DNA of 64,000 bases from Escherichia coli (GTDB lineage: Bacteria; Pseudomonadota; Gammaproteobacteria; Enterobacterales; Enterobacteriaceae): the NCBI RefSeq assembly GCF_048403405.1, contig NZ_CP183129.1; one strand, 5' to 3'. The notes under the pieces were generated by a model that was not told where the DNA came from, did no database searches, and saw only the letters and a program-made list of their open reading frames with translations. Below, in pieces: positions 44,891-53,167 of the stretch (position 1 is the stretch's first letter; each line of letters starts with the position of its first letter). A program made the translations under genes and the position numbers.

Positions 44891-45064
44891 TTAAAACAGT
44901 GAAAACAACAGCGCCACCGGGAAACTCATCGGCCATGTTGCCCCCACCAGAAAGGCGCTTAAGAAACGGATGCGTTTCTTATCGTGAGAAAGAAACCAGG
45001 TGATAAGAAATGCGATTGCTGCCATAACCGCATAAAAAACAAGCATGTGTTGATAGAGAGACAT
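44891..45064 (-). CDS. ortT: Small membrane toxin OrtT (orphan toxin related to GhoT)
   Basis: 57 aa from MSLYQHMLVFYAVMAAIAFLITWF within ORF 44891..45139. Confidence 0.8.
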   Translation of the reverse strand: MSLYQHMLVFYAVMAAIAFLITWFLSHDKKRIRFLSAFLVGATWPMSFPVALLFSLF

Positions 45065-45258
45065 GTACGGGCGTCCAGCCAGATGAATAAAACGCGCGCA
45101 AATATGCGTCATTTTTTGACGTGCATCAAGTTTTATCACCAGTTTGAGAAAAAATCATCAAACAGCAACTTGCCCTTATCCATCTTCAGAATGAGTATTA
45201 TTGCGGATTTTCTTAACCCGTACTATACACATAGGGGCAATGATAAAAGGTGGCAAAA

Positions 45259-45354
45259 ATGAATGTTTCCAGTAGAACTGTAGTACTGATAAATGTCTTT
45301 GCTGCTGTTGGTTTGTTTACTCTTATCTCTATGAGATTTGGCTGGTTTATTTGA
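45259..45354 (+). CDS. yncL: Small stress-induced membrane protein (31 aa)
   Basis: ATG with AAAGGTGG SD; MNVSSRTVVLINVFAAVGLFTLISMRFGWFI; below the 60-aa ORF-track cutoff. Confidence 0.75.
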   Translation: MNVSSRTVVLINVFAAVGLFTLISMRFGWFI

Positions 45355-45377
45355 TGTAGTGATTTTGCACGCAGCAC

Positions 45378-45410
45378 GTACTGTCAGAGAAATCAGTGCT
45401 CTGACAGTAC
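45378..45410. repeat. Perfect 12-bp inverted repeat (stem-loop) between yncL and patD, no U-tract
   Basis: gtactgtcagag-aaatcagtg-ctctgacagtac. Confidence 0.6.
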
Positions 45411-45450
45411 GCAAGATCTTCTCATACTCTTACGATCTGCAATATTATCC

Positions 45451-46875
45451 TTAATGTTTAACCATGACGTGGCGGACGACGGTGTAATCCTCCAGCCCAT
45501 AAAGTGACATATCCTTGCCGTAACCAGAAAGTTTCTGCCCACCGTGCGGCATTTCACTTACCAGCATGAAATGGGTATTGACCCAGGTACAACCATATTG
45601 CAGCCGCGCGCTGACGCGATGCGCCCTGCCCACATCTTTCGTCCATACCGAGGATGCAAGTCCGTACTGGCTGTCATTCGCCCAGTTCACCACCTGTTCT
45701 TCGTTGTCGAAGAGCGTAACACTCACTACCGGACCAAATACCTCTTTTTGCACGATGGCATCGTCCTGTAATGCGCCAGCCAGCAACGTCGGTGCATAGT
45801 AATAGCCATTACCCTTGCGCTTTTCACCACCGGTGATCACTTTGATGTGCCCTGTCGCTTTCGCCTCTTCTACCGCCTTGCTGACGCGTTCGAGATGCGC
45901 CAGCGAGCTTAAAGGTCCAAGCTCCGTAGACTCGTCATCCGGTGCACCCGATTTTAACGTTGCCACTGCAGCACCGAGTTTTTCCACCAGCGTATCGTAA
46001 ATACCTTTTTGCGCGTAGATCCGACAAGCCGCAGTACAATCCTGTCCGGCATTGTAATAGCCAAAAGTACGTACACCTTCGACCACCGCTTCAATATCCG
46101 CATCATCAAAAACTATCACTGGCGCTTTGCCTCCAAGTTCCATATGAGTACGCTTTATGGACGGCGCGGTATGGCTGATGATGTGCTCGCCAGTGGCGAT
46201 AGAGCCCGTCAGCGACACCATCCGTACTTTGGGATGTCCGGTCAGCGGATCTCCCACCGTTTTGCCTCTGCCAAACAGTACGTTAATCACGCCTGCCGGG
46301 AAGATATCTTTCGCCAGCTCTGCCAACTTCAACGCGGTCAGCGGGGTAATTTCTGATGGTTTAAGCACTACACAGTTCCCTGCCGCCAGCGCCGGAGCCA
46401 GTTTCCACGCGGCCATCATCAGCGGATAATTCCACGGTGCGATCGAAGCCACGACCCCCAACGGATCGCGACGGATCATCGAAGTATGACCTTCAAGATA
46501 TTCACCTGCCGCCAGACCATTCAGACAGCGCGCCGCACCAGCGAAAAAGCGAAAAACATCGACAATCGCCGGGATTTCATCATTGAACGCACTATGCAGC
46601 GGTTTGCCACAATTACGGGACTCCAGTTCGGCAAAAACCTGACCATTTTCTTCGATAACATCAGCCAGTTTCAGCAGACATTCCGCACGCACTTTCGGCG
46701 TGGTTTGCCCCCATTCGGCAAATGCTGCATCTGCCGCGCGCACAGCAGCATCGACCTGCTCTGCGGATGCCTCGGCAATCTCCAGTAAAACGTCCCCCGT
46801 TGCCGGATTATAGACAGGCTGTTTTTCCCCTTCGCCGCTAACCAGTTCTCCGTTAATCAGTAACTTATGTTGCAT
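45451..46875 (-). CDS. patD: Gamma-aminobutyraldehyde dehydrogenase (aldehyde dehydrogenase family)
   Basis: 474 aa; ALDH catalytic motifs (ELGGKAP, ...CTAACR...). Confidence 0.93.
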
Positions 46876-50799: not shown

Positions 50800-51043
50800 A
50801 AGGTCTTACTCCTGTCGTAATTAATTGTTCAGCCGCCGTGCCGTAAAAATATCTCCTTGTTTAACCATAGACGGCGGCTAGCAGGCACACCTTCGCCCCT
50901 GAGAAAATTTAATCAGGTTGTGAGCTACCGCGCATTATGCCGTCTGTAAGGTTATCTTCTGGAGTATAGACAAGGAGTTAGGAAATATGACTGCTATTCG
51001 AAATTCATATTACCCAACCTGAGAGGAATTTAATTAAACGCTA

Positions 51044-52450
51044 TTACAGCCGTTCTTGAATAAGTTTGCCTAATTGTTTAACCGCCTGTTCTTCACGTTC
51101 TCCCCACTGCCACGCGGTATTAAAACGGAAAAAACGTGACCAGTTTTCACCGGTAGAAAACATTTTACCCGGCGCAATACTGATATGATGCGCCAGTGCC
51201 GCCAGGCTTAATTCGCCCGCATCTAACGGTTCGGGAAGCTCCAGCCAGAGAAAATAACCGCTGTCATTATGATGAATTTTCACTTCCGCAGGCAGATAAC
51301 GCAGCAGTGCTTGCCAGGCACGTTGTTTACGTTCCGCAAGCTGGCGACGCAGGCGACGAAGATGGGCGTCGTATCGGCGCGTGGAAAGGTAATCCACCAG
51401 AGCAAGCTGCATCGGTGAGCTGGTGGAAAGCGTACTCATCAACTGCAAGCGTTGAATTTTACGTGCATGTTTTCCGGCGGCGACCCAACCAATACGAAAA
51501 CCAGGCACCAGACATTTCGAAAACGAAGAGCAATGCAAAACACCATCGTGGTGATCCCACGCTTTCGCAGGCAGCGGTTTTTCCCGTCCAAAATAAAGTT
51601 CGCTGTAAACGTCATCTTCAATCAGCGTTACGTTGTACTGATTGAGCAACGCTACCAGCCGCGCTTTTTTCTGCGGCGTTAAGGTAAATCCGAGTGGATT
51701 CTGGCTATTAGTCATCAGCCAGCACGCTTTCACCGGATACTCCTGCAACGCCAGTTCCAGCGCCTTGAGATCAATCCCTTCTTTAACGTCCGTCGCCACC
51801 GATAACGCCTTCAGCCGTAACCGCTCCAGCGCCTGCAACGCGCCGTAGAAACAAGGATTCTCTACTATCACCCAATCGCCCGGTTCAGTGACCGCTTGTA
51901 AACTGAGGTTTAATGCCTCTAACGCCCCGGCGGTAATGACAATTTCATCAGGAGAAATAGTGATGCCCTGTAAGGCATAACGACGAGCAATAGCCTGACG
52001 CAGTTCTGCGTTTCCTGGCGGTAAGTTTTCAATCACGCTCATCGCCGTGGCGGTTTTGCTTACCTGCGCCAGCGAGCGGTTTAGTTGTTGGAGGGGGAAA
52101 AGTCGCGGGTCGGGAAAGGCCGAGGCAAACGGAACTACCGACGGATCGCGACTGGCCTGCAACATATCAAAAATATAGGTGTTGATATCGACTGCTTCAT
52201 CTCGAGTGACAGGAATGACTGGCGCTTTCGGCATTTTTATTGCCTGTGGCGCAACGTAATAACCCGACTGCGGTCGAGCGATAATATGTCCCTGACTTTC
52301 GAGCAACTGATAGGCATGGCTGACAGTCATAAAGCTCATGCCAGAAAGCGCCACCTGGTCACGCAACGAAGGCAAACGATCGCCAGGTTGCCAGATACCC
52401 GACGCAATCTGCTCGCGTAATTGTTCTGCAAGCTGCTGGTATTTTTTCAT
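51044..52450 (-). CDS. ydcR: MocR/GntR-family regulator fused to an aminotransferase-like PLP domain
   Basis: 468 aa; N-terminal wHTH then fold-type I aminotransferase-like domain. Confidence 0.9.
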   Translation of the reverse strand: MKKYQQLAEQLREQIASGIWQPGDRLPSLRDQVALSGMSFMTVSHAYQLLESQGHIIARPQSGYYVAPQAIKMPKAPVIPVTRDEAVDINTYIFDMLQASRDPSVVPFASAFPDPRLFPLQQLNRSLAQVSKTATAMSVIENLPPGNAELRQAIARRYALQGITISPDEIVITAGALEALNLSLQAVTEPGDWVIVENPCFYGALQALERLRLKALSVATDVKEGIDLKALELALQEYPVKACWLMTNSQNPLGFTLTPQKKARLVALLNQYNVTLIEDDVYSELYFGREKPLPAKAWDHHDGVLHCSSFSKCLVPGFRIGWVAAGKHARKIQRLQLMSTLSTSSPMQLALVDYLSTRRYDAHLRRLRRQLAERKQRAWQALLRYLPAEVKIHHNDSGYFLWLELPEPLDAGELSLAALAHHISIAPGKMFSTGENWSRFFRFNTAWQWGEREEQAVKQLGKLIQERL

Positions 52451-52528
52451 TATCGAATCGTAATTATGTGCAGATGATTCGGCAGTCTATATCAGTTGTT
52501 AAAAATGACAACTTTTCGTTAACTGTAA

Positions 52529-52945
52529 TTAAACCATCACCAGCGATAACTCTTTGCCAAGCGCCTTTGCCGCGAGCTGGACGGCGTCGATTTTTGTCGC
52601 ATGGTGCAAATTAAATAGGCGAGTAATCTCCTGTTTAGGTTTGCCAATTCGTCTGGCTAACTCTTGCTGAGTGATTTCTGACTGTAAAAAAGCATTTAAC
52701 AGCAATACCTTAGAGGCGACGCTCAAAGGCACTTCAATAAAGTGATCGTGACTATTTAATGGCGAAGGTAACGGGATAAGCTCGTTATCTTCAAAATAAA
52801 AATCAAATGCGGTCAGTAAAGCATCTTTTGCCGCTTCCATCGCTTCAGCAACTGTTTCGCCCTGGGTCAACGCTTCAGGGATATCCACAAAAGAAACCAT
52901 ATAACCGCCTTCCGGCGCGGGTGTAAGAGTGACGGGATAACGCAT
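52529..52945 (-). CDS. hicB: HicB antitoxin
   Basis: ORF 52529..52966; start set at MRYPVTLTPAPEGGYMVSFVDIPEA (138 aa); the upstream in-frame ATG at 52966 is an alternative. Confidence 0.85.
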   Translation of the reverse strand: MRYPVTLTPAPEGGYMVSFVDIPEALTQGETVAEAMEAAKDALLTAFDFYFEDNELIPLPSPLNSHDHFIEVPLSVASKVLLLNAFLQSEITQQELARRIGKPKQEITRLFNLHHATKIDAVQLAAKALGKELSLVMV

Positions 52946-52990
52946 AATTTCGACTGTCTCTCGCATGTCATTAACCTTTTTAATTGGCGA

Positions 52991-53167
52991 TTAACTCAAA
53001 CCGAGTTGCTTCAGGATTGCTTTACGCAATGGTTCTTTTATCTCATCACTGGGGTGACGCGGCATGACACTGCGTCGCCCTTGAAACCTGAGTTTCAAAT
53101 GGTTGCTGCCATTCGCCACATCGACGCCCTGAGATTCGAGCCAACGTCTGAACTCGCTTTGTTTCAC
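52991..53167 (-). CDS. hicA: HicA mRNA interferase toxin
   Basis: 58 aa, GTG start with GGAGG SD; translated by hand: (M)KQSEFRRWLESQGVDVANGSNHLKLRFQGRRSVMPRHPSDEIKEPLRKAILKQLGLS; below ORF-track cutoff. Confidence 0.8.
   Translation of the reverse strand: MKQSEFRRWLESQGVDVANGSNHLKLRFQGRRSVMPRHPSDEIKEPLRKAILKQLGLS

Follow-up and report, generated by a model that had tools for sequence, protein, structure and literature searches.

Introduction

The toxin-antitoxin-type loci hicAB, ortT and yddM lie in a stretch of 64,000 nucleotides of the Escherichia coli chromosome (contig NZ_CP183129.1 of assembly GCF_048403405.1), which was analysed over its whole length and is called the window here. Counterparts of all three have been described. 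In the hicAB system of K-12, HicA is a small, ribosome-independent RNase with a double-stranded RNA-binding domain fold. It is neutralised by HicB, which acts through a partial RNase H domain and is degraded by Lon; both the toxicity of K-12 HicA and its neutralisation by HicB are known. Both proteins are made from P1, an upstream promoter that has a CRP-S site. The second promoter, P2, lies at the hicO inverted repeat and is repressed by HicB; its transcript gives only HicB, and excess HicA derepresses it (PMC11594946; bioRxiv 10.1101/2023.12.08.570793). Residue His23 has been reported to be important for the RNase activity of HicA (PMC11594946).

OrtT exerts its toxicity by damaging the membrane and lowering ATP, and the substitution F38R abolishes this effect. 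No neutralisation of OrtT was obtained with YdcY, GhoS, the flanking intergenic RNAs or a genomic library (PMC4344625). For yddM, which encodes a HigA-type antitoxin, strains CFT073 and NRG857c carry a toxin gene ('ParE-2') beside this higA, and K-12 and HS have the antitoxin only (PMC7232551). Proteus HigA alone represses its own promoter about 200-fold (PMC12266136). As far as the part of the publication considered here goes, YddM was among the candidates of a K-12 transcription-factor screen that combined chromatin immunoprecipitation-exonuclease (ChIP-exo) motif analysis with RNA sequencing (RNA-seq) of deletion strains; in that part its target genes are listed as N/A and confirmation of its DNA binding is not stated (PMC6237786).

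Against this background, we read the window as core chromosome that holds three unrelated, already characterised toxin-antitoxin relics at three stages, namely an intact hicAB, a lone ortT and a toxin-less yddM, and put the probability of this reading at roughly 0.9. The present analysis supplies the gene identities and anatomy, the deletion junction, the frequencies of the alleles and the purifying selection on yddM; biochemical activities are those of the literature.

Results

Two E. coli genomes, MS 69-1 and TUM14771, match the window at 100% identity, and in their RefSeq annotation the four genes are called hicA, hicB, ortT and yddM. When the segment that spans ortT and hicAB (44500-53400) was compared by megablast, six genomes matched at 100% identity, these two included. 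The presence of the loci was counted in 5426 complete E. coli genomes, the set used for all population counts below. The 8.9 kb ortT-hicAB stretch occurred in 5400 of them (at least 80% coverage), once per genome, and the adhP-yddM locus in 5413. Both loci were always found at the same chromosomal site, with metabolic genes on their flanks, and none of hicAB, ortT and yddM lies on a plasmid, a prophage or an island of variable presence. The stretch with ortT and hicAB belongs to the core chromosome of the species. Of the 5417 records that matched it, 5410 fell in the 95-99% identity band.

The hicA gene (52991-53167, minus strand) has a GTG start and encodes a 58-aa mRNA interferase toxin. It is so named in the RefSeq annotation of the identical genome, and its product matches PF07927 with 34.5 bits (cut-off 27). 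HicA is identical at 56 of 58 positions (97%) to K-12 HicA and to PDB 6HPB_A, differing by H29Q and C40S; the catalytic histidine, His23, is kept. On the same strand and 45 nt further on follows hicB (52529-52945), which encodes the 138-aa antitoxin and repressor (PF15919 and HTH_3) and is identical at all 138 residues to K-12 HicB and PDB 6HPB_B. Its annotated start is the ATG at 52945; the open reading frame can be read from 52966, which would give 145 aa. The operon is therefore toxin-first, in that hicA precedes hicB. The positions and strand given for both genes in the initial annotation were borne out by the open reading frame lists, the Pfam and K-12 matches and the RefSeq names.

At the DNA level, hicA differs from its K-12 counterpart by 9 of 177 nt, two of the differences changing an amino acid, and hicB by 8 of 417 nt, all of them silent; the sample is too small for either count to be interpreted. 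The hicAB promoter region (53168-53400, minus strand) is nearly identical to that of K-12. Over the roughly 200 nt from 53371 to 53172 there was no difference at all; the differences found are one substitution beside the start codon (53171) and four distal ones (53372-53395). The invariant span includes a perfect 7-nt inverted repeat, GTAAACA-N4-TGTTTAC, at 53200-53217, which is likely to correspond to the hicO operator. A CRP-S site was not convincingly located by eye upstream of hicA; it is the near-identity to K-12 that suggests its presence.

Compared with K-12 hicAB (b4532/b1438; PDB 6HPB, 6HPC), the operon in the window thus has the same yncJ-ydcR locus, the same toxin-first order, an identical HicB and a near-identical promoter and operator region, whereas HicA carries H29Q and C40S; no other difference was found. 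Judged from its sequence, hicAB is an intact type II toxin-antitoxin module and the sole complete pair of the three loci. With genes and upstream DNA that hardly differ from those of K-12, the operon is expected to work by the K-12 mechanism. The C-terminal helix-turn-helix of HicB would repress P2 at the inverted repeat upstream of hicA, and surplus HicA would relieve this repression, so that HicB alone is made. A search with PADLOC returned only weak matches, at the level of the helix-turn-helix, for HicB and YddM, and an assignment to anti-phage defence was rejected.

The ortT gene (ydcX; 44891-45064, minus strand) encodes a 57-aa membrane toxin of the GhoT family (PF10753, 96.9 bits). Its DNA is identical to K-12 b1445 at all 174 positions, and Phe38 and two hydrophobic stretches are visible in the protein sequence. 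As in K-12, its neighbours are ydcY downstream (44572-44805, minus strand; DUF2526, PF10735) and the divergent yncL upstream (45259-45354, plus strand), the latter encoding a 31-aa stress-response membrane protein (NF000537 equivalog, 72.5 bits; RefSeq); for ortT itself no difference from K-12 was detected. The block yncL-ortT-ydcY (44560-45460) is about 99% identical to K-12, in contrast to the surrounding 8.9 kb.

OrtT, homologous to the type V toxin GhoT, is an orphan without an adjacent antitoxin gene of the GhoS type, and no GhoS-like gene was found beside ortT, where only yncL and ydcY stand. A type I or other RNA antitoxin was also considered and rejected, no antitoxin-type RNA being present in the window by Rfam at the gathering threshold. 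The Pfam match, the identity to the K-12 gene and the published orphan status all agree with the description of ortT as an orphan membrane toxin. Since it is without an antitoxin, OrtT cannot serve as an addiction module; it is a lone toxin. The 57-aa peptide would form two membrane helices, harm the membrane and lower ATP, and would be controlled solely via its own expression in stress.

The yddM gene (1398-1682, plus strand) encodes a 94-aa antitoxin of the HigA family (helix-turn-helix, XRE type) that has no toxin partner in the genome. It matches the TIGR02607 antidote_HigA equivalog with 93.7 bits (cut-off 47.7) as well as HTH_3. The protein is identical at 94 of 94 residues to PDB 2ICP/2ICT, the crystallised HigA antitoxin of CFT073, and matches HigA of Proteus vulgaris with E = 1e-18. 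Its position, its HigA-like character and the absence of an adjacent toxin gene were all as first described. It had been suggested that a degraded HigB-like reading frame might lie upstream, and none does. The 145-nt adhP-yddM spacer (1253-1397, plus strand) contained no HigB-like frame when translated in three frames, and a tblastn search of the whole window with HigB of the CFT073 type gave no remnant, the best hit (E = 0.56) being located elsewhere. The toxin frame has been cleanly excised.

The excision is evident from strains that kept the toxin. In 100416, CFT073 and TUM13867 an intact gene for a 92-aa 'RelE/ParE family toxin' stands between adhP and yddM, and its stop overlaps the start of yddM. 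This toxin matches PF05015 HigB-like_toxin and, over its full length, Proteus vulgaris HigB (PDB 4MCT_B, E = 8e-32). Alignment with these three strains identifies the spacer of the window as what was once the promoter and leader of higB. The sequence that precedes higB is still present, including a conserved GGAACA-N10-TGTTCC repeat and a third GGAAC half-site (1341-1379); the inverted-repeat search placed the half-sites at 1341-1350, 1355-1364 and 1370-1379. What is missing is exactly 272 nt, from ATGAA at codons 3-4 of higB to the ATGAA that opens yddM. The junction (ATGAA, 1398-1402) thus lies just beyond the spacer, at the yddM start, and K-12 has the identical one. From the alignment, yddM is now fused to the promoter, leader and start position of higB. 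Downstream, yddM is followed by an intrinsic-terminator-like hairpin (1691-1709, plus strand) with an 8-bp stem, 7 G-C pairs and a T run. An IS200 element (1791-2382, minus strand) that is absent from K-12 and most genomes lies between this terminator and fdnI.

The ancestral locus would be a higBA module of the Proteus Rts1 type, with YddM as its HigA, from which one deletion of 272 bp between the two ATGAA motifs removed higB. After the deletion, the higB promoter, the GGAAC/GTTCC operator-like repeats and the higB translation start would drive yddM directly. Which of the repeats, here and upstream of hicA, are operators is something that we infer. The closest relative is HigB-HigA of CFT073/NRG857c ('ParE-2/HigA-2', PMC7232551): YddM is identical to HigA of CFT073 and the leader with its GGAAC repeats is common to both, whereas higB is intact in CFT073 and deleted (272 bp) in the window. 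The Rts1 HigBA of Proteus vulgaris (PDB 4MCT/4MCX) is a further relative, and its toxin frame has no equivalent in the window. Plasmid-borne relatives of HigB are at most 59% identical to the chromosomal toxin, and chromosomal higB-yddM is for this reason regarded as a lineage of its own within the Rts1-type family; a plasmid origin was rejected on the same figure. Three near-identical higB records are labelled as plasmids, one of them chromosome-sized (4.9 Mb) and the others of 385 kb and 253 kb.

When the alleles were counted, higB DNA was present in 1331 genomes. In 545 of these a 1-nt deletion cuts the toxin off after 34 residues, and the gene is annotated as a frameshifted pseudogene. The contiguous, toxin-less arrangement of K-12 and the window was found in 4082 genomes (75%), and the two groups together (1331 + 4082 = 5413) account for every genome with the locus. 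An intact higB is possible in at most 786 genomes (14%), compared with 10% for the frameshift.

A few toxin-less alleles depart from this arrangement. In P15-385 and WP8-S17-ESBL-05, 11 nt are inverted between the 9-nt inverted repeats ATTATTGTT and AACAATAAT (equivalent to window positions 1324-1352). The change, from GCGTAGGAAGG to CCTTCCTACGC, removes the left GGAAC half-site from the putative operator of YddM and is a hairpin-loop micro-inversion. WP4-S18-ESBL-07 has a nonsense codon in yddM (R40*) and has lost 29 nt of the spacer between two AGGAAC repeats; here the solo antitoxin is finally decaying. In the O157:H7 strain TR01, two blocks of the adhP-yddM spacer (39 and 45 nt) are swapped for toxin-allele sequence of equal length around an unchanged K-12-like core. 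A second, independent deletion of higB was considered for TR01 and rejected, as replacement at equal length fits ungapped read alignment in a reference-guided assembly; the odd allele is probably an assembly artefact.

Selection on yddM was estimated from 12 sampled alleles, 8 of them toxin-less. The protein (WP_000781370.1) was identical in 10 of the 12 genomes, toxin-bearing and toxin-less alike, despite up to 11 synonymous differences. The 12 alleles had 22 segregating sites, 19 synonymous and 3 non-synonymous. Among the 8 toxin-less alleles the ratio was 14 synonymous to 3 non-synonymous, against a random expectation of 76% non-synonymous (binomial P about 7e-7). By this estimate, yddM remains under purifying selection.

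The three loci had been described as lying within 10 kb. This holds for ortT and hicAB, which are 8.3 kb apart, but not for yddM, which is about 43 kb from ortT. Spacing was examined by simulation, in which 33-50 toxin-antitoxin-type loci were placed randomly on a circle of 4.6-5 Mb, 33 being the published count for strain NRG857c (PMC7232551). Some pair fell within 8.3 kb in 85-98% of the simulated genomes, and some triple within 52 kb in 77-99%. The co-occurrence of hicAB, ortT and yddM is compatible with chance, and an enrichment of toxin-antitoxin loci was rejected, the spacing being that expected by chance.

The window also contains an Rhs element (28227-32920, minus strand), which comprises an Rhs core protein whose C-terminal tip is variable and an overlapping gene for a pentapeptide-repeat protein (Pfam RHS_repeat x10, RHS and DUF6531; Pentapeptide). 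The core is full-length (1403 aa), and a tip of about 143 aa follows the DPLGL motif. For the tip there was no Pfam match even at E<=10 and no sequence match in PDB. The overlapping gene, which follows the Rhs gene, encodes 161 aa, and its product is likely to be the Rhs immunity protein. This tip/immunity variant was present in only 143 of the 5426 genomes. K-12 has only the rhsE pseudogene at this position, in contrast to the full-length Rhs of the window. The Rhs pair is a fourth toxin-type module of the window, one missing from the initial annotation. In the identical genome of MS 69-1, the ISAs1 transposases on either side of the element (33342-34478 and 27091-27641) are pseudogenes. Directly downstream of the immunity gene, by these pseudogenes, lies an Rfam match to group-II-D1D4-2 (28051-28159, minus strand; 48 bits, gathering score 36), probably a fragment of a group II intron in Rhs/H-repeat junk.

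By the RefSeq annotation of the identical genome, the gene order is maeA-adhP-yddM-IS200-fdnIHG, then the narU-narZ operon, the Rhs element, and mnaT-ydcZ-ydcY-ortT-yncL-patD-ydcVUTS-ydcR-hicB-hicA-yncJ-rlhA, ending with opgD. The window corresponds to 1.50-1.56 Mb of K-12, from adhP to opgD, in reverse orientation. A second IS200 (about 40826-41500, plus strand) lies between pqqU and mcbR; like the first, it has a full Rfam match to STnc490, the small RNA of the IS200 5' untranslated region. In the annotation of MS 69-1, yncG (about 34890-35500) is a frameshifted pseudogene. Over the whole window, the only Rfam matches at the gathering threshold were the two STnc490, the fdnG selenocysteine insertion sequence (SECIS) and the group II intron fragment.

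Discussion

The window had been described as carrying multiple addiction-type modules. The gene identities on which this was based are correct. As modules, however, only hicAB is complete, ortT being without an antitoxin and yddM without a toxin, and we prefer to describe the stretch as core chromosome with three unrelated relics at different stages. Several points count against this description. The operator assignments, for hicO and for the yddM repeats, were made by inspection only, and a consensus scan of the sequence upstream of yddM gave no sigma-70 promoter. The predicted HicA departs from the characterised K-12 toxin by H29Q and C40S. The estimate of selection comes from a small sample of 12 alleles, 8 of them toxin-less, and recombination with toxin-bearing alleles could supply some of the synonymous variation in yddM. 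Lastly, the loss or rearrangement of half-sites and the one nonsense codon in yddM mean that retained function is not universal.

If the three loci were a functional cluster or island of addiction modules, stabilising the segment or jointly acquired, one would point to three toxin-antitoxin-type loci and an Rhs toxin/immunity pair inside 64 kb, and to the Poisson probability of 0.01-0.03 for at least three loci in one pre-chosen window. The window was not pre-chosen, however, and 77-99% of the simulated genomes contain a triple of this kind. The loci come from families unrelated to one another and have conserved metabolic operons between them, their presence is near-universal and independent (ortT-hicAB in 5400/5426 genomes, adhP-yddM in 5413/5426), and killing on loss is impossible for two of them, one having no antitoxin and the other no toxin. 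We therefore regard such a cluster as extremely improbable. Hardly more credible is the proposal that yddM was originally toxin-free and that higB of the B2-type strains was inserted later, upstream of a free-standing regulator. Toxin-less alleles are indeed in the majority (4082 genomes versus 1331), but YddM is an equivalog-level HigA whose start overlaps the higB stop in toxin-bearing strains, as in bona fide higBA operons. Moreover, the window preserves the pre-higB sequence with its GGAACA...TGTTCC repeat, the gap is flanked exactly by ATGAA at both ends, the mark of a deletion by microhomology rather than of an insertion, and 545 genomes hold a frameshifted higB as an intermediate.

With deletion of higB as the preferred history, the role of the remaining antitoxin has to be considered. 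Solo YddM, we infer, is most likely an autorepressing helix-turn-helix regulator. It may have been kept by selection after the excision, either domesticated into a transcription factor that regulates itself or standing by as an 'antidote' to incoming higBA elements, a suggestion that we make tentatively. That solo yddM is instead a functionless, decaying remnant on its way to loss seems unlikely. One sampled strain does combine a nonsense codon with a 29-nt deletion in the operator, and another lineage has lost one half-site through the 11-nt inversion. These cases are set against a YddM that is identical in 10 of the 12 genomes sampled, from lineages with and without the toxin, and against the strong excess of synonymous sites. 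YddM was also taken into the ChIP-exo and RNA-seq work of the K-12 screen, although the part of that report considered here lists no target genes for it (N/A) and does not state that DNA binding was confirmed (PMC6237786).

All four genes had been annotated and studied before, and the finding as such is not new. What the analysis adds, though minor, is the sequence of the junction, the frameshifted intermediate, the allele frequencies and the selection estimate. As an inventory of characterised genes the result is correct and of little significance, with no new system or mechanism. The modest gain lies in the anatomy and the population frequency of higB loss, an example of toxin-first decay in which the antitoxin-repressor is kept. 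If YddM was indeed kept by selection after the excision, E. coli as a species would present a natural series of toxin loss, from an intact higB (at most 786 genomes) through the frameshift (545) to the clean deletion (4082).

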